Origin: Clostridiales bacterium UBA5448
GTDB lineage: Bacteria; Bacillota; Clostridia; Oscillospirales; SIG627
Assembly (NCBI GenBank): GCA_002427425.1
Contig: DIRA01000014.1
Location: 363,540 to 427,539, forward strand
DNA: 64,000 nt
Direction of reading: 5' to 3'
Below the pieces are notes generated by a model. That model did no database searches, had not been told where the DNA came from, and saw only the letters and a list, made by a program, of their open reading frames with translations. Each line of letters begins with the position of its first letter. Positions within the stretch are counted from its first letter, which is position 1. This document shows, in pieces, positions 31,161 through 61,366 of this stretch. The translations under genes and the position numbers were made by a program.

Positions 31161-32528
31161 TTATATCTTTGGTATACCCGCAAACCCTGCTGCCAATTCT
31201 TCATCCGTGGGAATATAGTCGCTCATTGTTCCATCGTGGAATTTTTCATACGCCATCATATCGAAGTAACCGGTACCGGTCAGCCCAAAGAGAATGGTTT
31301 TTTCTTCTCCTGTTTCTTTGCATTTCAAGGCTTCGTCAATGGCTGCTTTGATGGCGTGGCTGCTTTCGGGTGCGGGCAGGATGCCTTCCACCCGGGCAAA
31401 CGTTTCCGCCGCTTGGAAAACGGAGGTTTGCTCCACGGCAATCGCTTCCATCAATCCGTCGTGATATAGCTGAGACAAGATGCTGCTCATACCGTGATAC
31501 CGCAGACCGCCTGCATGGTTGGGAGCCGGTATAAAGCCACTGCCCAAGGTGTACATTTTAGAAAGTGGGCAAACCATGCCCGTATCGCAGAAGTCGTAGG
31601 CAAAAACGCCCCGGGTAAAGGAGGGACAGGAGGCGGGTTCCACGGCAATGATGCGGTAATCCGCTTCTCCTCGGAGTTTTTCTCCCATGAACGGTGCGAT
31701 CAAGCCACCCAGATTGGATCCGCCCCCAGCACATCCGATGATGATGTCGGGTTTCACGCCGTATTTATCCAGAGCGATTTTGGATTCCAGTCCGATGATG
31801 GACTGATGCAACAGCACCTGATTCAATACGCTGCCCAGCACATACCGATATCCTTCTGAGGTGACGGCGACTTCCACCGCTTCGGAAATGGCACATCCCA
31901 AGCTCCCTGTGGTACCGGGATGGTCCGCCAATATCTTTCTGCCCACGGCGGTTTCCATGGAGGGAGAAGGAGTGACCGAAGCGCCGTAGGTGCGCATCAC
32001 TTCCCGGCGGAAGGGTTTTTGTTCATACGATACTTTCACCATAAATACTTTACAGTCCAGTCCGAAATAAGAACATGCCATGGAAAGGGCGGTGCCCCAC
32101 TGGCCGGCACCCGTTTCGGTGGTAAGGCCTTTGAGACCCTGCTGATTGGCATAATAGGCTTGGGCAATGGCGGTATTTAATTTATGGCTTCCGCTGGTGT
32201 TGTTTCCTTCGAACTTATAATAAATGTTCGCAGGGGTTTGGAGTTTTTCTTCCAGGTAGTAGGCTCTCACCAGGGGAGCGGGACGATACATCGTATAGAA
32301 ATTCTGGATATCCGGGGGAATTTCAAAATAGGCGGTGTTGTCATCCAACTCTTGGCGAACAAGCTCTTTGCAAAACACGGCTTCCAGTTCTTCCGCTCTC
32401 ATGGGCTCCTTTGTCCCCGGATTGAGGAGGGGAGCCGGCTTGTTTTTCATATCTGCCCTGAGATTGTACCAGGCCTTGGGTATCTCGTCTTCTCTGAGGT
32501 AGATTTTGTAGGGGATGGGGTTTTTCAT
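31161..32528 (-). CDS. trpB: TrpB-like PLP-dependent enzyme (TrpB2-type tryptophan synthase beta chain)
   Basis: 455 aa (long TrpB2 form). NNTSGSHKLN lysine motif and GCAGGGSNLGG. Preceded by a Trp-specific T-box. No trpA is present in the window. Confidence 0.85.
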   Translation of the reverse strand: MKNPIPYKIYLREDEIPKAWYNLRADMKNKPAPLLNPGTKEPMRAEELEAVFCKELVRQELDDNTAYFEIPPDIQNFYTMYRPAPLVRAYYLEEKLQTPANIYYKFEGNNTSGSHKLNTAIAQAYYANQQGLKGLTTETGAGQWGTALSMACSYFGLDCKVFMVKVSYEQKPFRREVMRTYGASVTPSPSMETAVGRKILADHPGTTGSLGCAISEAVEVAVTSEGYRYVLGSVLNQVLLHQSIIGLESKIALDKYGVKPDIIIGCAGGGSNLGGLIAPFMGEKLRGEADYRIIAVEPASCPSFTRGVFAYDFCDTGMVCPLSKMYTLGSGFIPAPNHAGGLRYHGMSSILSQLYHDGLMEAIAVEQTSVFQAAETFARVEGILPAPESSHAIKAAIDEALKCKETGEEKTILFGLTGTGYFDMMAYEKFHDGTMSDYIPTDEELAAGFAGIPKI

Positions 32529-32566: not shown

Positions 32567-32838
32567 ATAAAAAATCTCTTGCCTCTGCAAATTCTTATGC
32601 AGGGACAAGAGAATACTCTCCTGCGGTGCCACCCGGCTTGACACAGATACTGTGCCCACTTTAACGTACCTCAATACGCTGACCCTTGATAACGGACAGT
32701 CACCCCCGTCGCACCTACTCGAAATTCTTTCGGATTGCCCTCCCAAGTCCATTCATCCCCATCTTTGGCACCGCCATTTCACCGCCGGCGGCTCTCTGTA
32801 TCCTCTGATACGCAGGATTACTTCTCTTGTTCATCGGT
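32567..32838 (-). promoter_or_regulatory. T-box riboswitch leader with a Trp (UGG) specifier
   Basis: The minus strand carries, in the canonical order:
- a GA motif and AGAGA-AGUA near the 5' end
- CAGAGAG...GGUGAAA
- the specifier context GAA-UGG-A (32754-32748)
- an AGUAGG box
- the T-box core CCGGGUGGCACCGCAGG (32636-32620)
- a 14-bp terminator stem (32611-32576) followed by AUUUUUUAU. Confidence 0.85.
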
Positions 32839-32845
32839 TTGTTGC

Positions 32846-42279: not shown

Positions 42280-43926
42280 ATGGGAAACACACTGCAATTA
42301 GAGAAACTCTCCCACGCGCCTAAACGGGCGTTGATGAAAGCCATGGGATATACCGACGAACAGATGAGGAGACCGCTGATTGGCGTGGTCAATTCCTTCA
42401 ATGAAGTTGTACCGGGGCATATTCATCTGCAGAGTATTGCCCGTGCTGTGAAGGATGGGATTCTCATGAGCGGCGGCACACCCATGGAATTCAATACCAT
42501 CGGGGTTTGTGACGGGCTGGCCATGGGACATGAAGGGATGCAATATTCCCTTCCGACCCGAGAATTGATCGCCGATTCCATCGAATGTATGGTGCGGGGA
42601 CATCAGTTTGACGGGTTGGTGTTCATTCCTAACTGTGATAAAATCGTCCCCGGCATGCTGATGGCGGCGGCACGGCTGGATTTGCCCTGCATCTTTGTGT
42701 CCGGCGGTCCCATGCTGTCTATCGACGGCAGTGACTTGAACACGGTATTTGAAGGAGTGGGGGCATACCACGCTGGTCATATGAGCACCAAAGAGCTCAC
42801 ATGTCTGGAAAACAGGGCTTGCCCGGGCTGCGGTTCTTGTTCGGGAATGTTTACCGCCAACTCCATGAACTGCCTGTGCGAGGCATTGGGTATGGCATTA
42901 CCGGGTAACGGTACCATTCCAGCGGTATATTCCCAGCGGATGGTACTGGCTAAGCAGGCGGGCATGACCGCAATGCGTGCCTTGAAACAAAACATCCGCC
43001 CATCCAGGGTGTTGACCGAAACCGCTTTTCGGAATGCACTCACCGTAGACATGGCGTTGGGCTGTTCCACCAACTCAGTGCTCCATTTATTTGCTTTGGC
43101 AAACGAAGTGGGGGTGGAATTGAATTTGAATCTGGTCAATGCAATCAGCAGCCATACCCCCAACCTGTGTCGGTTGGCTCCGGCAGGAAAACACCACATG
43201 CAGGATTTATTTGCAGCCGGCGGGGTGTATGGAGTCATAAGTCAACTGATGGAAGCCGGGATATTTGACGGGGAAGCCAAAACAGTTTGGGGCGCTTTTT
43301 TCCGGGAAGCGTTGGAAGGACATAGGGTGAAAGATGATTCCGTTATTCGTCCTATGAATGCGCCTTATGCAAATTCCGGGGGCATTGCGGCTCTGTTTGG
43401 GAACCTAGCACCCCGAGGTGCCATTGTAAAGCGCAGTGCAGTGAAAGAATCCATGCTGATTTTTACGGGAAAAGCCCATGTGTTTGATTCCGAAGAAGAA
43501 GCGGTGGAAGCCATTTACGGCAAAAAAGTGAAGCCGGGGGATGTGGTGGTCATTCGGTACGAAGGGCCGGCAGGGGGGCCGGGTATGCGGGAAATGCTTT
43601 CTCCCACCTCTGCCATTGCGGGCATGGGATTGGATGAATCGGTGGCGTTGATTACCGACGGGCGTTTTTCCGGCGCCACCAGAGGGGCCGCCATTGGACA
43701 CGTTTCTCCCGAAGCCGCATCCGGTGGTACCATTGCCTATGTGAAAACCGGGGACGCTATTCTAATCAATATTCCTGAAAATACCCTGGAATTGTTGGTT
43801 TCGGAAGAAGAATTAGAAAAGAGAAAAGCCACCATGTCCTTGCAGGCAAAAACACCTAAACAAGGATATCTCAGACGCTATGCCGCCCATGTATCTTCTG
43901 CTGATCTCGGTGCCGTGGTACGGTAG
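42280..43926 (+). CDS. ilvD: Dihydroxy-acid dehydratase
   Basis: The ATG at 42280 sits behind [34 protein letters not shown] and ITDGRFSG motifs. Confidence 0.93.
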
Positions 43927-43939
43927 AAAGGACAAAAGT

Positions 43940-45136
43940 ATGCTTTCATTGGATCGAGTTTATCTTGCCGGAGGAAGACTGCAAAGCGTGGTGCGGAAAA
44001 CCGATATGCTGTTTGCGCCTGCTTTGTCCCGAAATTCTCAGGTGTATCTCAAAACGGAAAATTTACAAAAAACCGGATCCTTCAAGATCAGAGGATCGTA
44101 CTTTAAAATGTCAACCTTGAGCGAAGAAGAAAAAGCCAAAGGAGTGGTGGCGTGTTCGGCGGGCAATCATGCCCAAGGTGTGGCGCTGGCGGCCCAAAAG
44201 TTTGGTATGGAAGCCACCATTTTTCTACCCAGTACCGCACCCATTTCCAAGATAGAAGCCACCCGTCAGCAAGGAGCAAACATTCGTCTGGCGGACGGGG
44301 TTTATGACGATGCCTATCGAGAAGCGATTGCCTATCGGGAGGAAACGGGCGGGGTATTTCTCCATCCCTTTGACGATGAGGACGTCATAGCGGGGCAAGG
44401 CACCGTGGCTTTGGAAATCGTGGATCAGCTGCCCGAAGTGGAAGCGGTGGTGGTTCCCGTGGGGGGCGGCGGGTTGATTTCCGGTATTGCCTATACCATC
44501 AAATCCCTCCGCCCGGAGTGCAAAGTCTATGGCGTACAGGCATCGGGGGCAGACAGCATGAAACAATCCTTGCAGGAAAAACACTGCTGTCACCGGGATT
44601 CGGTGTCCACCTTTGCTGATGGAATTGCCGTGAAAAAGCCGGGGAACATTACGTTTGATATATGCAGTCGCTATGTGGACGGCATCGTTACGGTCTCGGA
44701 TGATGAAATCGCAACCGCCATTCTCACCTTGATGGAACAGCAAAAACTGGTGGCGGAAGGAGCGGGGGCTGTAGCCGTGGCGGCTGTGATGTTCAACAAA
44801 CTGCCACTCCATGGCAAAACCGTCTGCGCCGTGGTTTCCGGGGGGAACATCGATGTGAACATCCTGTCCAAAGTCATCAACCGCGGCTTGATGACCTCAG
44901 GACGGTTGACCCATCTGACCATTTCTTTGCTGGATAAACCGGGACAGCTGCAAGCCGTTTCCACCATCATTGCCCAAGAAGGCGCCAACGTCATCCGGGT
45001 GCAATACACCCCCGGCGGGGAAAACATGGATATCTGCGGCTGTTATTTGAAAATTTCCATGGAAACCAAAAATCACGAGCATTTGCAGAGCATCCGCCAA
45101 TCATTGACCCGGTCCGGATTTACCCTTTGTGATTGA
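43940..45136 (+). CDS. ilvA: Threonine ammonia-lyase (biosynthetic, single C-terminal ACT-like domain)
   Basis: ENLQKTGSFKIRG PLP-lysine motif, GNHAQGVA, GGGGLISG. Start at MLSLDRVY. Confidence 0.9.
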   Translation: MLSLDRVYLAGGRLQSVVRKTDMLFAPALSRNSQVYLKTENLQKTGSFKIRGSYFKMSTLSEEEKAKGVVACSAGNHAQGVALAAQKFGMEATIFLPSTAPISKIEATRQQGANIRLADGVYDDAYREAIAYREETGGVFLHPFDDEDVIAGQGTVALEIVDQLPEVEAVVVPVGGGGLISGIAYTIKSLRPECKVYGVQASGADSMKQSLQEKHCCHRDSVSTFADGIAVKKPGNITFDICSRYVDGIVTVSDDEIATAILTLMEQQKLVAEGAGAVAVAAVMFNKLPLHGKTVCAVVSGGNIDVNILSKVINRGLMTSGRLTHLTISLLDKPGQLQAVSTIIAQEGANVIRVQYTPGGENMDICGCYLKISMETKNHEHLQSIRQSLTRSGFTLCD

Positions 45137-45209
45137 TTGATAGCACTTTCAATTGGAACAGATTTTTAATACGAACATAAGCGAAGAAAAAACATAAGAA
45201 AGGATGGTC

Positions 45210-45584
45210 ATGATGGAAATCATCTATACCCCTCAGGCGCCCAATCCCATCGGCCCGTATTCCCAGGCAACAAAAATGCAAAACATGCTCTTTTGTTCGG
45301 GGCAAATTGCCATAGAGCCCGAAAACGGACAGTTTTTGCAGGAAAACATCAACCTCCAAACCGAACAGGTTTGCCGCAACATACAGGCGGTGTTACGTTC
45401 TGCCGGACTGGAATTAAAACACGTGGTGAAAACCACTTGTTTTCTGGTAGAATCCGAGGATTTTGTTCCCTTCAACGAAGTGTACGGACGCTTTTTTGCC
45501 CACAGTCCCGCCCGTTCCTGCGTGTTTGTGCAAGGTCTTCCCAAAGGAGCCAAGGTGGAAATCGAAGTGATCGCCGCTTTTTAA
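45210..45584 (+). CDS. ridA: RidA family reactive-enamine/imine deaminase
   Basis: APNPIGPYSQA and PARSCVFVQGLPKGAKVEIE motifs. The start is ambiguous among ATGs at 45204, 45210 and 45213. Confidence 0.88.
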   Translation: MMEIIYTPQAPNPIGPYSQATKMQNMLFCSGQIAIEPENGQFLQENINLQTEQVCRNIQAVLRSAGLELKHVVKTTCFLVESEDFVPFNEVYGRFFAHSPARSCVFVQGLPKGAKVEIEVIAAF

Positions 45585-45608
45585 TGGAAAAAAGCACCCA
45601 AAAATGGT

Positions 45609-45637
45609 AAAAAAACCGCCAAACGGCGGTTTTTTTA
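45609..45637. terminator. Bidirectional terminator between convergent ridA and the amidohydrolase gene
   Basis: AAAAAAACCGCC-AAAC-GGCGGTTTTTTT. Confidence 0.85.
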
Positions 45638-45651
45638 CTTGAAAATAAAGA

Positions 45652-46428
45652 TTATAATCCCAGTTTTGCGGCCAATTCACCAAAAAGAAGCCCTTCTTTT
45701 TCGTGCTCAGTGATCTCGGCATAATAGACACGGTTGAGAGCACATTCCACATAGGCGAAGGGGTTTAAGGAACCAAAGCAATACCGCTGCAGGGGAATAC
45801 CGTTAAGTTTGGACAGGAAAGGACCGGAGGTCATGAAAGAAATACGGCTGATATCGAAATACACATGGTCATGCTCCCCAAATAATGTACCCATATTCCG
45901 GATGGTGGCGGGAATGACCTGGGTAACGATGGTCAAAGTCTTTTTGCCGGTCAACAGCAGTTTGGGAATCTCGCTGGTGCATTCTAACGGATAATCATGC
46001 AAGTTTCGTTGCCGGGTATTTTCAAAGGAGTTGTTGATACGAACAGGAATGTTTCTTTCCCCGCAGTAGGCATAAAAAGAAACCAAGGTGGGATCGTCCC
46101 AGGCATAATGGTGGTAGTGGGGCATGATTTCCACGCCTTGAAAGCCGAATTGCTCCAGGCAGATATTGCAATCTTTTTCCCAGCCAATGTATGTAGGATT
46201 GATGACGGCAAAGGGAAGCACGTTTACCCCGCCTGCATAGGCTTTTACTTCTTCGTATAGTTCTTCGTTCGCTTTCTGGCAATCCTGATAGAAGGCACCA
46301 TGTAAATGGGAGGTGATGATATGGGTGACACCTGCATGTTCGGCAATGGCGGCAATCTGTTCCAAGGTGGTTGCGTGCAGAGGTCGAAAAGGCCAGTGAC
46401 CTACATAGGTAGATACATCTAAAATCAT
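45652..46428 (-). CDS. Amidohydrolase-fold (Amidohydro_2-like) protein lacking the obvious metal ligands
   Basis: 258 aa with a TIM-barrel hydrolase-like pattern. The N-terminal motif reads LDVSTYVGHWPF (no HxH). The C-terminal motif reads FGSLNPF in place of FGSD/FGTD. Confidence 0.5.
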   Translation of the reverse strand: MILDVSTYVGHWPFRPLHATTLEQIAAIAEHAGVTHIITSHLHGAFYQDCQKANEELYEEVKAYAGGVNVLPFAVINPTYIGWEKDCNICLEQFGFQGVEIMPHYHHYAWDDPTLVSFYAYCGERNIPVRINNSFENTRQRNLHDYPLECTSEIPKLLLTGKKTLTIVTQVIPATIRNMGTLFGEHDHVYFDISRISFMTSGPFLSKLNGIPLQRYCFGSLNPFAYVECALNRVYYAEITEHEKEGLLFGELAAKLGL

Positions 46429-47264
46429 TTTCTCGCCCTCCGATTCAAAAATCTTCTGTAAGCAGTTCCTTCCAGGATGGTTTTTTTATCTTCCTCGGAA
46501 ATATTGGCTCCGAGAATTTTACCCACGCCTGCTTCATAAGATCCGTCCGTACCAAAAAGAATACGCCGGGCTCCCAATCGTTTGATGGCGTCTTCGATCA
46601 TCGGAGCATCGACCACGCTACCGCTTATATCGGTGACGATGCTAGGGGAATCTGTGATGGCTTTGATTTGCCACTGCCAGTCGCCGCCGCCGCCGATATG
46701 GGCCATGATGATGTTGGCTTCGGGATACAGTCTGGCAATGTTGGCAAAATGGTGGCCTGCTGAGAGTTTGGGCTGGGTAGAACGCAGCTGAACCGATTTG
46801 CCCGCATGCACCAAAATGGGGATATCCAATTCTATGCATTTTTCAATGACGGCAAATTGCTGGGGATCGTCGATGAAATAGTGGTGATACAGTTTGATGC
46901 CTACAAACCCGTAATCATATACGCACTTTTCAATTTCATACAACGCTTCTTTGGTGTAGCCTACATGAATGAAGGCTAAGCCGTACAATTTGTCCCACCG
47001 TTGACAGGCCTCATATTGCAAGCGGTTAACACGGGAAAAATCATCCGGTATGCAGGGTTTGCTCAGGGGAATAGAACAGATCACCGCATCGGTGCAGGTC
47101 GCTTCTGCGCTCTTTCTCAGGCGATCCAGTGAGTTTTCCCGGAGTTTGCCGGATTGGGAATCTTCCCAGACGTGTTCATGCCAGTTGACTACAAAATTGT
47201 CTTTGAAAAGAGAAAGACGCTTTTCATAGTCTTGAGTAAATGTGGTTTCAGTCATATTTTTCAT
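46425..47264 (-). CDS. Amidohydrolase family (Amidohydro_2) metal-dependent hydrolase
   Basis: NWHEHVW (HxH), MAHIGGGGDW and FGTDGSY motifs. 279 aa. It overlaps both neighbouring genes by 4 nt. Confidence 0.65.
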   Translation of the reverse strand: MKNMTETTFTQDYEKRLSLFKDNFVVNWHEHVWEDSQSGKLRENSLDRLRKSAEATCTDAVICSIPLSKPCIPDDFSRVNRLQYEACQRWDKLYGLAFIHVGYTKEALYEIEKCVYDYGFVGIKLYHHYFIDDPQQFAVIEKCIELDIPILVHAGKSVQLRSTQPKLSAGHHFANIARLYPEANIIMAHIGGGGDWQWQIKAITDSPSIVTDISGSVVDAPMIEDAIKRLGARRILFGTDGSYEAGVGKILGANISEEDKKTILEGTAYRRFLNRRARK

Positions 47265-48496
47265 CCTTCCTTATGGTTGAACATATATTTTCCCAACAAT
47301 TCATGTCCTTTTTCGATGCAAATTCCGGTCTTTTTTGCCTCATCTTCCGTAAACCGCGCCACGAGAGAAGCCACCTCGTTTTGGTTGTCATACAAGAAGA
47401 AGGGAACGGGCGCTCTGGTGTGGGTACGGATACGCACCGGCGTGGGATGATCGGGACAGATCAGGATGCGGTATGCCTCCCCCATGCTGTCCAGATATGT
47501 TTTGATGGGTACAAGAACCTCTTGATCGATTCTCTCAATGGCAACGACTTTATGATCAGCTTCACCCTGATGACCGCATTCATCGGGGCCCTCCAGATGA
47601 ATATACACAAATTCATAGCCTTCTTGAAAGGCATCGATAGCGGCGTTGGCTTTGCCGGCATAATTCGTCAGATAATTACCCGTGGCGCCTTCCACGTGGA
47701 TAGGCTTCATTTTGGCGCAAATACCGATCCCTTTGATTAAATCCACCGCTGAAATTACAGCACCCTTAACCCCAAATTTTTCTTCATAAGAAGGAAGGGC
47801 GGGCTTTTTCCCGGCACTCCACAGCCAGATGCAGTTGGCGGGACGCTTGCCGGCGGCGATACGTGCCAAATTGACGGGATGAACGTTTAATATTTCATAG
47901 GAGCGAAGATATAAATCCCGATAGATATCGCCTACTTTGCCGTGGGGTAGTTTGTCTTTGATTTTTTGTCCTAAAAAATCATGGGGACGGGAAAAATCAT
48001 AAATAGCTTCGTTTTCGGCAGGGGGATTGGACCAGATCATGCAGTGGCGATAACTGATACCTGTATAAAAATGACGGGTATCGGTTCCTAAAGCCTGATC
48101 CAAAGCGCGGATTAACGCATCGGCTTCTTTTGTGGATATTTCGCCGGCACTGTGGTCGATCATGATTTTTTCTTCAAAGGGTTCATCCTCGGACAAGGTG
48201 ACCACGTTGCAGCGGAAAGCCACATCTTCCGGTGACATGTCCAAGCCCATGCTCATGGCTTCGAGAGGGGAACGACCTTTTGAAAAGATTTGGGGATCAT
48301 ATCCCATCACCGCCAAATTGGCGGTGGAGCTTTCAGGTACCAAATTGTCCGGAACGGTGATCATAGTACCGCAGAGAGATTTTTGCGCCAGTGCATCCAT
48401 GCAGGGCTTACAGGCACATTCCATGGGAGTTTTGTTATCTAACTTCGCAACGGGCTCATCCGACATCCCGTCGCAGAGAATTACCAGATATTTCAT
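47261..48496 (-). CDS. Cofactor-independent phosphoglycerate mutase family protein (ApgM-type alkaline-phosphatase superfamily)
   Basis: MKYLVILCDGMSDEP N-terminus, EGPDECGHQGE and CPDHPTP motifs. 411 aa. Confidence 0.8.
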   Translation of the reverse strand: MKYLVILCDGMSDEPVAKLDNKTPMECACKPCMDALAQKSLCGTMITVPDNLVPESSTANLAVMGYDPQIFSKGRSPLEAMSMGLDMSPEDVAFRCNVVTLSEDEPFEEKIMIDHSAGEISTKEADALIRALDQALGTDTRHFYTGISYRHCMIWSNPPAENEAIYDFSRPHDFLGQKIKDKLPHGKVGDIYRDLYLRSYEILNVHPVNLARIAAGKRPANCIWLWSAGKKPALPSYEEKFGVKGAVISAVDLIKGIGICAKMKPIHVEGATGNYLTNYAGKANAAIDAFQEGYEFVYIHLEGPDECGHQGEADHKVVAIERIDQEVLVPIKTYLDSMGEAYRILICPDHPTPVRIRTHTRAPVPFFLYDNQNEVASLVARFTEDEAKKTGICIEKGHELLGKYMFNHKEG

Positions 48497-48511
48497 GTTG
48501 TACGCATCCTT

Positions 48512-49171
48512 TTAAAAAATTTTTGATCTTGTAACCGAAACGATTTTCCATTGACCGTTCAGTTCCACAATGCTATAGATTTCTTCGATGGCAATAGCTT
48601 TAAACGTGCCGGTGGCATCGAATCTGCTTTGGGACAAATCGTTGCGAAAAGTCCCGTTGTTTTGAAAAATATTATAGGTGATGATAAAATTTTCGGCTGT
48701 ATAACCGACACCGTTGAGTTCAGTTTGGGTTGATGTGGTTTGGTTGATATCGATGTTGAGAACTTTCTGATGGGTAAAATCCTCTTTCACCGGAGGGGTT
48801 GCGTAAAAAGATTTGAAAACGATTACATCCCCTTCTACGATGGCATCAAAATAATCCCGGAAAAAACGGCAGTAAACATCCTGTTTGGAATAGTCTCCCG
48901 TTTGATCTTCCTTAAACAAAGTTTCCCCTTCATAGGTGATATACCCATAATCCCGGGTACGCAATTTGACATAAATCGCGTCCTTAAATACATCTTCATC
49001 CCGAATAACGGGGTACAAGTCAATTTCACTTTTCTTAACGGGGGAAGGGGTCCTTTGAGCGAACATAAAAACAGAGCTACCGGTCAACAGCGCAACGACC
49101 AGCAGTAGCAAACCACCTTTGATCAGGCGGGATTTTTTAAATTTTGTTTTTAGGGGTCGTTCTTTTTTCAT
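48512..49171 (-). CDS. Membrane-anchored hypothetical protein
   Basis: Basic N-terminus plus one TM segment (GGLLLLVVALLTGSSVFMF). 219 aa. No recognisable motif. Confidence 0.5.
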   Translation of the reverse strand: MKKERPLKTKFKKSRLIKGGLLLLVVALLTGSSVFMFAQRTPSPVKKSEIDLYPVIRDEDVFKDAIYVKLRTRDYGYITYEGETLFKEDQTGDYSKQDVYCRFFRDYFDAIVEGDVIVFKSFYATPPVKEDFTHQKVLNIDINQTTSTQTELNGVGYTAENFIITYNIFQNNGTFRNDLSQSRFDATGTFKAIAIEEIYSIVELNGQWKIVSVTRSKIF

Positions 49172-49175
49172 GTTC

Positions 49176-51029: not shown

Positions 51030-54000
51030 TCACACCGCATTGTATGCATCGGTTTGTAAGAGTATTCCTTTTGCCTCCTCCAATTTCGAAAGGATTTCTT
51101 CCATACAGGAATCACTGTCCTTGAACCAAGCAGGCGCATACACACGGCAGATTTTCCAGCCCGATTTTTCCAGATTGTCCTGTAAAAGCACTTCCCGGCT
51201 GAACGCATCCGAGGAGAAGCGCAGGGCGGTGTCGTCTAGCAAAATCCCCATCAGACAGGTATCCGGTTTATCGGGATGCATGACACCAATATCCAAAGAA
51301 GTATAAAGGGGGCAACGGGTCATATATCCTTTTTGGTGTAAAAACGTACAAATTTTTTGCCGTACCACTTCATCCGTGGAAGTTTCTGTTTCAACCAAGG
51401 CGGGACGATAGACGGTTTTGGATTCCAAAGCCTTGAAAAAGTGCTGAAAAGCGCCGTATCCATCCTGCAGAGTGGGACAGAGAATGAGTTCTTCGGGGGC
51501 AAAAGAGGTGATAACAGTCAGTTGTTTTTTCACCGATGTACGCATCATGGCAAGGCGGGTTTCTCCGTCTGGCATGGAAAGAACCGCTCTGCGGGGTAGA
51601 GTTCCGCTTTGGGATTCGAGGGTAAAAACGGGAGAAAAGAGAATATGATCTCGGGGCATATAAACTGCTGAAGGCAGAGCGGATATGTATAAAGGCTCGG
51701 ATGCCTGTTCCAGGACAGAAGCAATGTCCGGTTTTTCCATCATGAGGCGGGACAAATGCTGTTCGATGCACCGTTGTTGACGTGCATGCATGGTAAAAAC
51801 ACCCACAGAAAAGGTTTCCGGATGTTGTACACACTCTTTGGCCATGGTAAAAATGGTTTGGGCTATCCATCTGGCTTCCGTTACATTGACATCGTTTTCA
51901 TCGCAATGCCCGCCGGTGACAACCACGTGAACCACATCCCTGAAATCAACGGGGGTGGGGGCAGGCAAGAGCGGCTTGGAGGGGATAGGAGATGTCAGGG
52001 AAGATAGAATGGCATGCATTCTGCCGGGGGAGGTATAGTTTTCGGTCAGTACTGTCCGAACAGGACATACAGGACGAAGGACGGCATATAAAGATTGTAT
52101 TTCTTCCTGTCTGGGGGAAACCAGGTGGCTGTCCTCGGCATAGGGACGACTGATACCTCCGTGGTGGTGCACAGCAGTGCGGGAAGATAATACCACGGCC
52201 CGATCGCCCAGCATGGTCAAGGCACAGGCGGTATGGGAAGGAATCAGATGGGCATCATCTAAAATCACATAATCAAAATTCCAAAAATTCGGCTTATCGC
52301 AAACCTGCCGCAACAGAGAAGCATGGCAGGCAAGGACACAGGGGAAGCGGGCGTTGGCGGCATGGGGAAGGGAAGCATACAATTTCATGCCGTTCATTTT
52401 TCCGTTGGATTCCAGACAGCGGGCATATTGGGGGGAACTCCGGAGATGCTCTCTGTGGAAAGAAGCGCATATGTTGGCATGGGCAGAGCAAAATGCCAGA
52501 ACAGACTGCTCCCGATAGGTTTTTTCCAGTTTTTTCAGATGCTGTACTTTCTGTAAATAGACAGCGGGATCGAAATCTTTCAAAGCGTCTTCCGTGATGG
52601 AAATGGAGCGGCAAGCTGCTTCAAAAAAACCTTTGATGAAAGAGGCTTCCATTTCTTCGGCGGTGACAGGGTTGTTTTCATACAATGACACCACTTTTCC
52701 CAAGCCCATTTTGATGGCTTGATCCCGTGCGGTAAGCCATAGGCACCATTGGGGGAGGGATTCCACCCCTCGCTGGGTTTCCAACAAGATGTCCATACGC
52801 CGTAAAAATGGTTTATCCGCTGTTTTTTCATAGGGGGCAAAGTCAATATGCAACAGAGATGCCAAGGTGTTCACCAAGTCAAGCCAGGTTTTATAGGCAT
52901 CTTCTGCCTGGCTCAATTCATCGACAAGATGGGAAGGGGAATCGGGCAGAGCGTTGGCAACGGCAGCCAATTCCCTGTTTGCCGAAACACGGCTGCGATA
53001 ATCAATACACACATTGACCGCGGCATACAGTTGTTTGATCGTGTCCGAGGGCAGTTCATCCAGTCCCGCCTCGGTGAAGTGAAACAGATTCATCAGAAGA
53101 GGGAAGCTTTCGTTGGCTCTTTGTAGATGCTGGGTATATTCTGCCAATCGGTTCAAAACAACATCAATCTGACATTTTCGGCAGTCGAAAATGTCTTTGG
53201 ATGCCAGATGAAGGGCATCCAGTATGGTGCGGCGGACCGCTTTTTTCTTAAAGAAGGGAAGTTCTTCACTGGTCTGCCAGTCGTACTGCATTTGCATAAT
53301 GGGCAACGTGTACACGTCATCCTCAAACATAAGGCTCAATTCTTCCCGCAGTTCCAAGGCATCCATGGCACTTTGGAGGGAAGCGCTCAAAGCATCTTCC
53401 TGTTCTTTCCATCCGGGATATGCCAAAAAGGTTTTAACCATGGACATATGGTTGGAAGCCAACTGCCGGACAAAGGTAAACAGGCTATTCACTGAGGTGG
53501 GAGTTGAGGGGATTTCCTCTATGTGCAAGGTGCGGCAAAGAGAATCAATGAACGTGGTGAAATGGTCATAGTGAGAAAGCGCATCGGTCAACATCAACGG
53601 AACTCTGCGGAGATCATAGGGAGAACAGGTCAGGGCCTTTACATAGCGCAAGGGGTTGTTATAGGGTTCCCCGCAGGCTTTGCCGCAGCAAAACAGGGTG
53701 GCCGCCATGTCAAACCGGGCGGCAAATTCTTTCTTGTACAGTCCTGAGAGTTCCAAAGGCGTGAAAGGAACAGCTTTTGCATGACGACAGCGTTCGTATT
53801 CCTGCAAAGCGCGGTTAAAAGAGAAGCCGAACAACTGGACTTTTTTCAAAGCATAGTAGTAAGCATCCAATTCCTTTTTGAGCTTAGTAATATCGGACAA
53901 CAAAATATGGAGAGGGGGTTCGGTTTTGGGATCGCCTTCTTCAGACAGGGGGAAAGAGGGAACGACCCCTTCCGATTGCTCCCCGAAGGCAAAAATGGAT

Positions 54001-58354: not shown

Positions 58355-59689
58355 TTACCCCAGAATTTCATTCATACCAAAGGGATCGTCATCCGTTTCT
58401 TCTGTGTTTTCGCTACGAGAAAGGGTGACGGCATCACTGCCCAGCAAAGAGTCCAAGGTCACGGCAGGATTGTGCATTAGAATGCTCAACACATGGAGGA
58501 AATCCCGCAGTACTTCCCGGGGGGTGAGGAATTCATCGGTGCCCATTTTGTTTAGGCAAAACTGTAAAAAGTGAATCAACTCTTCTTCCGTCAGCCGGGG
58601 TTGAATGTTGTGGTAACGGGCAAACAAATTGCGCACACGAACCAACAGGGCAAACAAGGCACTGTCATCCAACCGTTCCAATCGAATGACCGGGGAAAGC
58701 CAATCGGTGTATTGCCCCGCAAAATGACCGCCGCACAAACGGCTTTTTAAGGCTTCATAACTGTAAAGTCCCCGGCGTTCATCTTCCAGAAACTTGGGGG
58801 TTCCGCCCAGGTAAATACCCAGTCCTTCGGCTTTTCCCTGCAGAGTATCATTGAACATGGACAGCACTTTTTCATAGTTGTTTCCGCGGGAAATCCGGTT
58901 GGGGATTTTATATAAGTTGACACATTCGTCAAAGAATACGATCAAGCCTTTGTATCCCACAGCCCGGAAAAAGGCTGCCTGGAGTTTGATATAGTCGTAC
59001 CAATTACTATCGTCGATGATGCTGCCCACGGATAAGGCCAGACGGGCTTCCGAGCGGGTGGCATATTCCCCCCGTAACCAACGCATGGCGTTGGAAGTCA
59101 GAGTGTCGTCCCCGTCGGTAATGCCACGGTAATATAAGGTGAGAACACGGGCAAAATCAAATCCGTTCACCAAACTATGAAGAGAAGAAGCTGTGGCGGC
59201 GATTCGTTTTTGTACCTCTTGGGAAAAGGCAGGGTGTTCAGGGGTTAAATTGGTTTCCGTAACCAAATCAATCTGCACTTTGGTGAACCAGCGAGCCAGA
59301 ATGGTGGGCAGACCTCCTCCGTCGGGCATAGATTTGACTGCTAGATTTTTCATCAGTTCCCGGTAGGTGGCAACGCCTTGTCCTTTGGTACCGGCAAAAC
59401 GACGTTCAGGGGACAGGTCTGCATCGGCGGTGACAAAATCCCGCTCCAAAGCGTTGCACCGCATCAAACCAATCAGAAAACTTTTTCCGCTGCCGTACCG
59501 GCCGATGAGAAAACGAAAAGCACCCATGCCCTCTGCCACGTTATCATAGTCGGATAAGATGGCGCGGACTTCTTCTTCCCTTCCGATGGCAATGTATTCA
59601 AGTCCTGTGCGGGGTACAACCCCCGCCGCCGTGGCGGTCAGAAGGGTACCCAGCGTTCTTCTGGGAATTACAATATCTTGGGATTTCAT
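58355..59689 (-). CDS. P-loop ATPase of the DUF2791 / BrxD-like type (SngB-like)
   Basis: N-terminal GVVPRTGLEYIAIGREEE, Walker A GRYGSGKS, Walker B LIVFFDE. 444 aa. There is a 4-nt overlap with the upstream gene and a 3-nt gap to the downstream one. Confidence 0.7.
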   Translation of the reverse strand: MKSQDIVIPRRTLGTLLTATAAGVVPRTGLEYIAIGREEEVRAILSDYDNVAEGMGAFRFLIGRYGSGKSFLIGLMRCNALERDFVTADADLSPERRFAGTKGQGVATYRELMKNLAVKSMPDGGGLPTILARWFTKVQIDLVTETNLTPEHPAFSQEVQKRIAATASSLHSLVNGFDFARVLTLYYRGITDGDDTLTSNAMRWLRGEYATRSEARLALSVGSIIDDSNWYDYIKLQAAFFRAVGYKGLIVFFDECVNLYKIPNRISRGNNYEKVLSMFNDTLQGKAEGLGIYLGGTPKFLEDERRGLYSYEALKSRLCGGHFAGQYTDWLSPVIRLERLDDSALFALLVRVRNLFARYHNIQPRLTEEELIHFLQFCLNKMGTDEFLTPREVLRDFLHVLSILMHNPAVTLDSLLGSDAVTLSRSENTEETDDDPFGMNEILG

Positions 59690-61245
59690 GACAGGTTCCT
59701 TTCCGAAGTCAAAGTTGCAAGAATTTCGTCGGCGTATTCTTCAAATACGCTATTTAAATCGCAAATCGGCTCTCCGTAAAAGGAGAGTGCTTTTTCATTA
59801 ATGGTATCTACCACGGATACTAAAAACAAATTTTGTTTTCGCGCCTCGTTTCCGGCAGTTTGGGTATCCTGTTTTGCCAAGGCATATAGGCAGATTCTTT
59901 CCGTTTCGGTGAGCAAACATACCCATCCGTCGGATTCTTGGGGTGCAATTGGTTCCGGTGGTGGTTGTGACGGGATATCGTCTTCGTTTTCTGTATCCTG
60001 ATACGCGGTGAGCAATCGGGTGGTTTCCCAGGCGATGGTTTCCATCAAGCGGGCTTTTTCCAAATCCACCTGCACCGGTGGTTTGGGAATGAATACTTTC
60101 TGTTCGATCTTCACGGGTTTTTCGTCCGCTGCCAAATGGGCAATAAGAGAGGCGATCGGTTCCGACAAATGAATGCCCGAAAGCCGCGACCGTATGCCGC
60201 AAACACCCCGCGTGGCGTTGTCAATGGCTTTCATGCAATCCCCCAAGATCGAGACAAAAATTTCTTCTCCCCAATTGGGGTAGCAATCCAGCTCGATGAT
60301 TCTTCTTTTCTCGGCAGAAACCACCGCACCGGAGAATGCCGGACGGGTGATTTTCATGGGCGAAGAGGATATGGTGGGGAATAAAACGCCGCTTTCCAGC
60401 AGTTTGGGAAACAGGCGCATGCGGGCTTCTTCCATGCGGCAGGCAAACTCCCCGTTTTCTTTATAATATCGGCTGTGACGATATCGATAGGTGCAAAATC
60501 GTTTGATCAAAAAATCTTCATGGGCATCGGTCATGGGCACTTTTCCTCCCAGCAACCCGTCAACCAGAGCGCAAATCCCCGACAAAGGCAAAACCCGCAG
60601 CTCTGAATCGCAGAAAATATCCAGAATTTCCCCCAGCGGAAGAGCCATCTTCCAGAGAATGCACAGATCCAAGATCCAGTCGGCCATTTGTCTGTCCATC
60701 ATGGGAAAATCCTTCCGATAGGCTTTCCAGACGGTCAATAAGTTGGCAAGGACTTGTTGAGGTTGAATCCATCCGGTCAAATTGATTTGCTCGTAAATGT
60801 ATAAATACAAATACCCAAAATCCACCCGGACATATTCACCCCTGCGAATGCCTTCCCGCCAGGAAAGATAAAACCGGAATTGATCTTTGGTCAAATTTTC
60901 ATAGCGGGGCATGACGGTGTAAAAAGAACGATAGGGAGCATCGGGCTCGCCGCTTTTTTGATGGGATGCCAATGCTTCATCATAAAAACCCCGGAATGCC
61001 GTGCGTTGACACCCTTGGAAAGAAACGGTGGCGGCAATGAGAATGCGGCTGTTGGAGGTTAAATCCTGCCGCTGATCGGGGGGGAGTTCCAAAGGATGGA
61101 AGATGCCTTCCTCCCAGGCAAGACAGGCAGGTGTCATGGGCAAGGAGTAATCGGGATGGGTGGATGAGATTTCGGAAGAGGTGAAATCCCGGTGGGTTTG
61201 CGATGGCAAGAGTTTATCGTTTGTCCAGAAGGAATCCCGGCTCAT
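59686..61245 (-). CDS. TerB-N / TerB-C domain protein (SngA-like)
   Basis: TerB-N-type motif LTKDQFRFYLSWREGIRRGEYVRVDFGYLYLYIYEQINL, then a helical middle region and a C-terminal domain after an acidic linker (ENEDDIPSQPPPEP). Start at MSRDSFW (61245), behind GGGGGTGGA. An alternative ATG lies at 61260. Confidence 0.65.
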   Translation of the reverse strand: MSRDSFWTNDKLLPSQTHRDFTSSEISSTHPDYSLPMTPACLAWEEGIFHPLELPPDQRQDLTSNSRILIAATVSFQGCQRTAFRGFYDEALASHQKSGEPDAPYRSFYTVMPRYENLTKDQFRFYLSWREGIRRGEYVRVDFGYLYLYIYEQINLTGWIQPQQVLANLLTVWKAYRKDFPMMDRQMADWILDLCILWKMALPLGEILDIFCDSELRVLPLSGICALVDGLLGGKVPMTDAHEDFLIKRFCTYRYRHSRYYKENGEFACRMEEARMRLFPKLLESGVLFPTISSSPMKITRPAFSGAVVSAEKRRIIELDCYPNWGEEIFVSILGDCMKAIDNATRGVCGIRSRLSGIHLSEPIASLIAHLAADEKPVKIEQKVFIPKPPVQVDLEKARLMETIAWETTRLLTAYQDTENEDDIPSQPPPEPIAPQESDGWVCLLTETERICLYALAKQDTQTAGNEARKQNLFLVSVVDTINEKALSFYGEPICDLNSVFEEYADEILATLTSERNLS

Positions 61246-61282
61246 GCAATCCACCCCCATTTTGCTAAAATCTTATTATAAT

Positions 61283-61311
61283 ATTCTATCATGTAATATG
61301 GATTGCGTCAA
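61283..61311 (-). promoter_or_regulatory. Promoter of the TerB/ATPase/helicase operon
   Basis: The minus strand reads TTGACG (61311-61306), 17 nt, TAGAAT (61288-61283). It lies between the upstream terminator and the first gene. Confidence 0.55.
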
Positions 61312-61339
61312 CCAAAATTTCCTTGCTTAAATACAAAGA

Positions 61340-61366
61340 AACACCCCGTGGTTTTCACAGGGTGTT
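61340..61366 (-). terminator. Intrinsic terminator of the Gfo/Idh/MocA gene
   Basis: The minus-strand RNA reads AACACCCUGUG-AAAAC-CACGGGGUGUU followed by UCUUUGUAUUU. On the minus strand the stem is perfect apart from a single G-U pair. On the plus strand that position is a C-A mismatch. Confidence 0.75.

Follow-up and report, generated by a model that had tools for sequence, protein, structure and literature searches.

Four open reading frames (ORFs) placed head to tail on the minus strand of a 64,000-nt stretch of DNA from Clostridiales bacterium UBA5448 (assembly GCA_002427425.1, contig DIRA01000014.1; this whole stretch is "the window" below, and unprefixed positions are its coordinates) join the three genes of the defence system Shango, sngA, sngB and sngC, to a very large fourth gene of the DUF4011 family, ORF4 (Table 1). 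A first-pass annotation made from the letters alone had described the four ORFs, their junctions, a promoter in front of them and the terminator of the gene upstream, and inspection of the sequence and of the ORF list found each of these as claimed, together with every motif that it had quoted.

Its assignment of the first three genes to Shango is borne out by the PADLOC Shango profiles, all three of which match nearly end to end. The sngA product, read by eye as a TerB-type protein, has a Pfam TerB_N match (2.2e-16; 60.7 bits against a cut-off of 25) and a TerB_C match (3.6e-4) that is under the Pfam cut-off, and it aligns with PADLOC SngA (3e-35) over profile positions 82-525 of 528. The sngB product falls, as had been supposed, in DUF2791 (Pfam BrxC_BrxD, 1.9e-147, profile positions 1-412 of 414); it matches PADLOC SngB at 7.1e-165 and BrxD at only 6.7e-49, and its Walker A (GRYGSGKS) and Walker B (LIVFFDE) motifs are both intact. 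The sngC product has Pfam DEAD (7.5e-28), Helicase_C (4.3e-14) and weak WH_Lhr matches, retains motifs I, II, III and VI (SPTASGKT, DEIH, SAS and QRLGRSGR), and matches PADLOC SngC at 5.8e-231 over profile positions 4-712 of 720, with BrxHI at 2.4e-125. The genes are contiguous and co-oriented in the order A-B-C, which is also their order in the related loci L002 and L101 described below, and by these profile matches ORF1-3 are a canonical Shango triad. In the Shango loci sampled from metagenomes an SngB match lies directly upstream of sngC wherever upstream sequence exists, and the more divergent SngA was detected in most.

Shango was described by Millman et al. 2022 and Johnson et al. 2023 (PMC10250203) as a system of three genes, encoding a TerB-like protein, an ATPase and a DEAD/DEAH helicase, and it has been validated in P. 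aeruginosa and E. coli with no mechanism given (PMC10250203; 10.1101/2022.05.11.491447). Its protection is modest and is directed against several phages. TerB has been proposed in the literature to serve in membrane-associated surveillance, and in a published helicase tree SngC clusters with BrxHI, DruE and DpdJ (PMC12278908).

Within the triad sngA overlaps sngB by 4 nt and a gap of 3 nt separates sngB from sngC, spacing from which sngABC are predicted to be translationally coupled. There is an alternative ATG for sngA upstream at 61260; the start is set at 61245 because the ribosome-binding-site region aligns with that of L002 and a 519-aa gene is called in the metagenome contig L093. For ORF4 the start at 56138 is favoured because GGGAG sits 7 nt upstream of it, and the gap after sngC is then 23 nt, while an ATG at 56171 would instead overlap sngC by 10 nt. 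Antisense ORFs inside the four genes are regarded as chance ORFs.

The TTGACG-17-TAGAAT promoter ranks best among the promoter-like sites of the region and is preceded by the terminator hairpin of the upstream oxidoreductase gene. Both of its hexamers and its TG are kept in L002, although the two loci share only ~73% DNA identity, and L002 carries a large insertion in the spacer between the upstream gene and the operon. A signal scan of the region found no terminator after ORF4 or between sngC and ORF4, and no strong promoter of ORF4's own was found at this locus, so that transcription most likely continues into ORF4 from the Shango promoter. Co-transcription of the four genes here is thus very probable, which upholds one part of the earlier description of them as a single transcription unit.

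The contig L093 is 99.8% identical to the window over 43030-61341 and from 61341 (L093:2822; blastn and alignment) continues as unrelated sequence that encodes a Na/Pi cotransporter and contains a very small ORF of phage-scaffold type. The point of divergence lies within the terminator that precedes the sngA promoter, and it represents either a strain-level rearrangement at the 5' boundary of the operon or an assembly chimera.

Table 1. Features of the four-gene locus and its surroundings, in window coordinates
Feature	Position	Strand	Description and basis
sngA (ORF1)	61245-59686	minus	519 aa, TerB_N/TerB_C protein
sngB (ORF2)	59689-58355	minus	444 aa, BrxC/BrxD-family (DUF2791) P-loop ATPase
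sngC (ORF3)	58351-56162	minus	729 aa, superfamily 2 (SF2) DEAD/DEAH (Lhr/BrxHI-like) helicase
ORF4	56138-51030	minus	1702 aa, by its motifs a motor-degenerate offshoot of the DUF4011/PDC-S37 family
Promoter, sigma-70-type	61311-61283	minus	TTGACG, 17 nt, TG-n-TAGAAT; 10/12 matches, extended -10
Intrinsic terminator of upstream Gfo/Idh/MocA oxidoreductase gene	61367-61339	minus	12-bp stem, 6 GC pairs, T-run
ORF4 N-terminal module (aa 1-345)	56138-55104	minus	Ig-like beta-sandwich and transglutaminase-like core (AlphaFold2 model, Foldseek)
ORF4 DUF4011 domain (aa 380-545)	55001-54504	minus	Pfam PF13195
ORF4 Walker A GEEGSGKT (aa 665-672)	54146-54123	minus	motif alignment
ORF4 Walker B-like FDYVILDD (aa 1288-1295)	52277-52254	minus	alignment; subsequent motif III (GDxKQxPP) absent
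ORF4 REase_MTES_1575 domain (Vsr/DUF559-clan)	51359-51081	minus	Pfam and alignments
Small multi-pass membrane protein, DUF3792/TIGR04086-like	51017-50601	minus	138 aa, 12 nt after ORF4; Pfam, gene calls
Housekeeping block	50570-45652	minus	polysaccharide deacetylase, 219-aa protein, iPGM-like phosphomutase, two amidohydrolases; context, not defence

ORF4 had been read as a DUF4011-family giant with a restriction-endonuclease-like C-terminus, and Pfam agrees, with DUF4011 (PF13195) at 1.5e-11 (45 bits against a cut-off of 22.2, profile positions 6-158 of 158) and REase_MTES_1575 at 5.7e-11 (42.8 bits against 38.2). The AAA_11 and AAA_12 matches, 24.8 and 16 bits, are both below the Pfam cut-off of 27, and there is no match to DUF3320 (PF11784), a domain carried by many canonical relatives; the protein ends ~16 residues after the MTES_1575 domain and is ~200 aa shorter than those relatives. 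The best PADLOC profile is that of the candidate system PDC-S37 (4.3e-79, 264.7 bits), matched over positions 21-877 of 1550 only, while the canonical relatives P0011 and P0022 match it end to end, over positions 8-1531 (1218 bits) and 12-1536 (921 bits). Six members of the ORF4 subfamily that were tested score 155-290 bits on this profile against the 921-1218 bits of the canonical proteins. The Hhe profile (4.7e-24, 81.7 bits) is matched over positions 1501-1785 of 1911, by approximately the last 280 residues of ORF4 only, and canonical relatives reach 455-567 bits on it.

The motor region has fared poorly. Canonical relatives carry the motifs GPPGTGKSQT, FDEASQ, GDPKQMPPT, VQGDERDVILFS and RRLNVAVSRAR, and in alignment with them the superfamily 1 (SF1) motifs III (GDxKQ), V (QGxE) and VI (VSRAR) are absent from ORF4; all that it and its close kin retain is a GxxGSGK[ST] resembling Walker A and, for Walker B, DD. 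Even the strict Walker A pattern is lost in 7 of 13 subfamily members, with no correlation found between its retention and linkage to Shango. A sequence search of the PDB gave a match to Upf1/NAM7 that is confined to the surroundings of motif I, and it gave no solved DUF4011-family structure. The SF1 motif set of the Upf1-like protein read earlier is thus incomplete. Its likening to Hhe is too strong, given a profile match that is C-terminal only and the absence of DUF3320 and of motifs III, V and VI.

The N-terminal module appears altered as well. The AlphaFold2 model of residues 1-345 (pLDDT 84, pTM 0.85) retrieved with Foldseek the TG2/FXIII sandwich, RhoGDI and 3isr, a transglutaminase-like cysteine protease, and weak Transglut_core matches are seen in 4 of 12 aligned family members; ORF4 has GNSLEI where canonical proteins have the cysteine of GTCxDL, and SQ where they have the histidine of GH. 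In the nuclease-like domain D1616 and D1635 are invariant in an alignment of six subfamily members, and the glutamate of ExDG is leucine in ORF4 (LLDD); about half of the canonical relatives lack this glutamate too. As far as alignment can tell, ORF4 is a motor-degenerate derivative, or pseudo-helicase, of the DUF4011/PDC-S37 family.

A word-indexed protein search gave 43 ORF4 matches, six of them in a subfamily of ~1650-1700 aa. An exhaustive search of representative sequences gave 2733 family members at E <=0.001, including the further ~1650-1700-aa members P0167-P0171, P0173 and P0196; another word-indexed protein search, with a profile, added no subfamily members, and a scan of genome contigs with an ORF4 profile from a 3-sequence alignment returned only an already known metagenome-assembled genome. 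The subfamily comprises six deep lineages with 22-27% pairwise identity. Three are linked to Shango: lineage A (the window with P0002 and P0003; loci L001 and L002 beside the window itself), lineage E (P0168; L100, a short contig on which the C-terminus of SngC is upstream) and lineage F (P0171; L101, GCA_034925865.1, with full SngABC upstream). The other three have no Shango adjacent, namely lineage B (the P0004 group; L003), lineage C (the P0005 and P0008 group; L007 and L008) and lineage D (P0167; L098). In A, E and F sngC is 12-24 nt upstream of the ORF4-like gene.

Within lineage A, L001 and L002 share the full synteny of the window (oxidoreductase 78%, SngA 54%, SngB 79.5%, SngC 73-79% and iPGM 71-73% identity), and ORF4 is only 43-45% identical between the window and these loci. 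L101 shares with the window only the four genes, with SngA at 2e-25, SngB at 6e-166 and SngC at 2e-234 (PADLOC) and the ORF4-like gene 24 nt after sngC; both flanks are unrelated and its GC content is 41%, against 48% for the window. A strong promoter-like site precedes its sngA, and a perfect TTGACA-17-TATAAT follows the stop codon of its ORF4-like gene, before the next gene. In L100 the SngC C-terminus, 62% identical, ends 12 nt before the ORF4-like gene, which is followed by a hairpin with a T-run and a convergent gene. The unit of Shango and ORF4 therefore ends with the ORF4-like gene in both L101 and L100. Across these loci the linked pair persists from 79% to 56% SngC identity, with ORF4 down to 23% and genomes of 41-53% GC, and with its recurrence in L101 and L100 the adjacency is more than a one-off.

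The trees point to some antiquity for the linkage. In a neighbour-joining tree of the 201 closest full-length SngC proteins (200 bootstraps) lineage A and the L101 group make a 14-member clade in 164/200 replicates (82%), none of the ORF4-less metagenome loci falls within it, and the L100 fragment, ~95% like P0050, nests in the same clade. The ORF4 tree, also neighbour-joining, used 12 canonical outgroups and 300 bootstraps and was repeated on three partitions with two distance corrections. The subfamily is monophyletic in 300/300 replicates and lineage A is basal in 282/300 (in 48-94% of replicates across partitions and corrections); B, D, E and F group together in 238/300, and monophyly of A+E+F, or of B+C+D, appears in no more than 3/200 replicates in any partition. 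The most parsimonious history on this tree would have the linked state ancestral, the ancestor of the subfamily being already joined to this clade of Shango and to the iPGM block, with Shango later lost from B, C and D and the downstream block lost in F. An early reading held the modules to be unconnected neighbours, Shango having inserted in a single lineage; it was revised after lineages D, E and F emerged, two of them with SngC upstream.

The explanation to which we would give about an even chance is that the operon is ancient and its two modules are facultatively associated: ORF4 would cooperate with Shango, which does not require it. Each module also occurs without the other. Module 1 (61245-56162), Shango, would be driven by the conserved extended -10 promoter, and module 2 (56138-51030), ORF4, would be expressed from the same transcript. 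SngA may sense infection, with SngB and SngC probably acting on nucleic acid, and ORF4 might add NTP-binding, a DNA-binding scaffold or a nuclease-like output; alternatively, ORF4 could be a second, independent defence layer that no longer needs a motor of its own. ORF4 would accordingly be a facultative partner of this branch of Shango and not an integral fourth subunit. A functional link is favoured by the recurrence of gene order and of a junction of 24 nt or less in three deep lineages, by the survival of the block through a change of both flanks, by operon boundaries that bracket exactly four genes in lineage F with the 3' end also marked in E, by long co-inheritance of both modules, and by the fact that the motor-degenerate subfamily arose at the same point as the linkage. 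Functional cooperation of ORF4 with Shango is plausible but unproven.

Several observations pull the other way, and most of them also favour the alternative, possible if on the low side of even, that the modules are neighbours purely by descent, with ORF4 a vertically inherited resident and Shango having landed or sat upstream once, to be passively inherited and lost piecemeal with no functional interaction. The inherited neighbourhood would be PcrA ... ORF4, small membrane protein, SCIFF/radical-SAM, deacetylase, iPGM and SpoVA. At the window ten co-directional genes, from 61245 to 45652, are spaced by 30 nt or less; the tight packing runs on past ORF4 and so does not single out four genes here. 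No SngABC was found within the 1.8-10 kb of sequence available upstream of the intact ORF4 of lineages B, C and D. ORF4 adjoins a co-directional upstream gene by 19-23 nt there too, a PfkB gene in L003 and a B12-binding gene in L098. It is syntenic with iPGM and deacetylase in four of the six lineages and, as it stays beside such unrelated housekeeping genes, adjacency can evidently persist without an obvious functional link. On the ORF4 tree at least 2-3 breaks of the junction of SngC with ORF4 would be needed, a frequency similar to that for the junction of ORF4 with the unrelated downstream block. Ascertainment also matters: the linked loci were found through ORF4, and nine SngC-clade proteins in the L101 group are of unread context, while the neighbour-joining trees rest on very divergent sequences, 22-27% identical. 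In P. aeruginosa, moreover, core defence hotspot 1 (cDHS1), which often bears Shango, is flanked by a core DUF4011 gene that is a mere bystander (PMC10250203).

Other Shango loci add to this side. There are at least 7985 SngC relatives at E <1e-100, and ORF4 relatives are rare by contrast. When metagenomes were scanned with an SngC alignment, 80 Shango loci were recovered, none of which (0/80) has a DUF4011-family match, and in the 51 that hold at least 1.9 kb of downstream sequence the neighbours are unrelated and heterogeneous. In 9 of these 51 an unrelated co-directional gene begins within 50 nt of the end of sngC, and two such genes, encoding AddB and GH20, overlap it by 4 nt. Two plasmid loci that were examined, from Klebsiella and Mesorhizobium, are bare triads, and Shango thus appears self-contained in all 51 loci and on both plasmids. 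The question posed earlier, how often the DUF4011 gene lies next to such triads, therefore has a divided answer: three of the six deep lineages are linked, one of them in a different genomic context, and three lineages are unlinked, while no DUF4011-family gene lies in any of the 80 other loci, 51 of which extend far enough downstream to judge. The gene is neither a sporadic neighbour only nor cleanly something more.

What the inherited-neighbourhood explanation has in its favour beyond these points is the evenness of the downstream side. Parts of the downstream block are syntenic with ORF4 in lineages A-D, with iPGM 54-73% identical across loci (tblastn), and the B and C orthologues, ~22% identical to ORF4, keep the small membrane protein, the deacetylase, the unknown protein and iPGM. 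A protein similar in size and layout to the 138-aa membrane protein follows ORF4 in A, B and C, with 18-56% identity in alignment. In lineage D the order is PcrA, B12-binding gene, ORF4-like gene, SCIFF, radical-SAM gene, unknown gene and iPGM. Such a stable Clostridial neighbourhood, at 22-24% ORF4 identity, suggests that ORF4 is a resident, core-like gene and not mobile cargo. Upstream the genes vary. Besides Shango they are PfkB, with a resolvase and a ubiquitin-like E1/E2/JAB cluster farther away (lineage B), a divergent pair of MutS_V genes (C) and PcrA with the B12-binding gene (D). This fixed downstream side and variable upstream side invite the idea of a hotspot; Shango is the sole recognised defence system among the upstream genes, and PADLOC gave only generic or weak JAB, protease, radical-SAM and UvrD matches for the genes upstream of ORF4 in L003, L007 and L002. 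Finally, as the linked SngC proteins are one clade, a single ancestral event may explain all the linked loci. Against passive inheritance stands L101, where both flanks differ and yet the four genes keep the same order and a 24-nt junction and are bracketed by promoter-like sites; the terminator-like hairpin and convergent gene that close the L100 unit count in the same direction, as do the survival of the pair through the divergence given above and the coincidence of the origin of the motor-degenerate subfamily with the linked state.

The unlinked neighbourhoods have features of their own. A few kilobases upstream of the lineage-B gene (L003:1-7462) are ThiF (E1), UQ_con/FHA (E2-like), a trypsin-like protease, two JAB proteins, Prok-RING and a resolvase, a ubiquitin-like conjugation cassette of the conflict-system kind for which PADLOC gave only generic JAB and protease matches. 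The divergent pairs of lineage C (L007:3-2863 and L008:397-3347) encode proteins of ~480-500 aa whose sole Pfam match is MutS_V, one L007 product having no Pfam record, and they have no meaningful PADLOC match. SCIFF with a radical-SAM maturase is present in lineage D and a radical-SAM gene in C, and SpoVA genes are near in B and D.

The sampled Shango loci are varied. At L012:7030-13744 the gene overlapping sngC is addB, followed by addA, and at L068:12259-14658 it encodes a GH20 beta-hexosaminidase. On Klebsiella pKPNEU34_1 Shango stands alone between lacIZY and repA. On the Mesorhizobium huakuii plasmid p_1 (L102, 270242-277751) sngA is split by an IS256 transposase, and Shango is flanked on both sides by large SbcC-like ATPases (annotated as ATP-binding/AAA family, double-strand break repair). 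Among plasmids generally, 413 carry tblastn matches to ORF4 and 686 carry SngB-like genes, conjugative Klebsiella plasmids dominating both sets, and the top-listed ORF4 matches are annotated DUF3320/DUF4011; an apparent coincidence of coordinates between two Mesorhizobium plasmids proved spurious. A canonical DUF3320/DUF4011 gene in Bacteroides finegoldii (L097, NZ_OY725931.1, 13803-20892) lies tail to tail with a reverse-transcriptase family gene, 1 nt separating the two ends; that record is labelled a plasmid, yet has rpsA and glutamine synthetase and is probably a chromosomal fragment. Viral contigs, scanned once with the SngC-clade alignment and once with P0168, gave no match.

A bolder account, tentative and on balance doubtful, is that this branch of Shango recruited a DUF4011/PDC-S37 giant at its origin and that the giant, with SngB and SngC to provide the motor, dispensed with its own and with its transglutaminase-like site; it would now provide a DNA-binding or nuclease-like output or a sensor, and the lineages with ORF4 only would be relics or use Shango encoded elsewhere.

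Improbable, in the end, is the obligate four-component system of the first-pass annotation, a fusion of Shango and Hhe with the giant protein as dedicated effector or sensor of the TerB/ATPase/helicase core, for although the operon is tight and recurs in lineages A, E and F, Shango has no obvious effector domain, the nuclease-like domain of ORF4 has two invariant aspartates and SngB/SngC could conceivably compensate for its lost motor, the validated Shango systems have three genes (PMC10250203), neither module requires the other in nature (as lineages B, C and D, the 80 other loci and the bare plasmid triads attest), ORF4 is not Hhe by profile coverage and has neither DUF3320 nor intact helicase motifs, and its ExDG glutamate is missing.

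Elsewhere in the window there is a T-box leader (Rfam RF00230, 99.8 bits) at 32598-32843 on the minus strand, upstream of a 455-aa ORF at 31161-32528, and there are no tRNA genes.

The triad is a further member of the known Shango system, and the recurrent pseudo-helicase DUF4011 partner in one branch makes at most a variant of it; no description of such a recurrent joining was found in the literature searched. Shango is experimentally validated, yet it has no recognisable effector domain and no mechanism is described in the papers found, so that a branch accompanied by the same giant protein with a restriction-endonuclease-like domain since that subfamily arose offers a concrete candidate for a partner or output, and the locus provides a natural comparison of three genes with four. 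The ORF4 subfamily is of interest in itself as a defence-type helicase-nuclease that seems to have turned pseudo-helicase and fixed chromosomal resident. Should recruitment with loss of the motor prove true, it would give a first handle on how effector-less Shango executes defence. Should the link be inherited synteny only, it would be a caution against delimiting a defence system from overlapping or nearly overlapping genes and a common promoter alone, since 9 of the 51 control loci abut unrelated genes as tightly.

Set beside known systems, the likeness to Shango is closest, with the same three proteins in the same order, near end-to-end profile matches and intact catalytic motifs; the difference is the fourth, DUF4011-family gene 12-24 nt after sngC in this Clostridial subclade, a gene that the published systems, the two plasmid copies examined and the 51 other sampled loci do not have. 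BREX is related, in that BrxD and BrxHI are the profiles nearest to SngB and SngC after those of Shango itself, but the Shango profiles score far higher for both, and none of PglX methyltransferase, PglZ, BrxA/B/C or BrxL was seen among the ORFs read from 38000 to 64000. With Hhe, a single-gene system (HheA), ORF4 shares DUF4011, an SF1-type P-loop region, a C-terminal Vsr/DUF559-clan domain and the form of a giant single polypeptide, and it differs in being chromosomal and, to judge from its neighbours, vertically inherited at a fixed position. PDC-S37, likewise a single gene and a PADLOC candidate, comes nearer, as its canonical members P0011 and P0022 share the whole architecture of ORF4 including the N-terminal module; in contrast to them ORF4 has neither the catalytic cysteine and histidine nor most of the helicase motifs and matches half of the profile, and the three canonical members whose context was read are standalone genes among housekeeping genes, without Shango. 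The flank of cDHS1, a comparison that rests on gene layout and not on homology of the Pseudomonas protein with ORF4, resembles the present locus in having, at one constant place on the chromosome, a large DUF4011 gene beside a small hypothetical one, Shango on the variable side and a radical-SAM gene nearby, as here in lineages C and D. The Pseudomonas gene, however, does not adjoin its cargo, and all isolates possess it irrespective of what that cargo is, whereas here the junction with sngC is of 12-24 nt and recurs across deep lineages and in a second genomic context.

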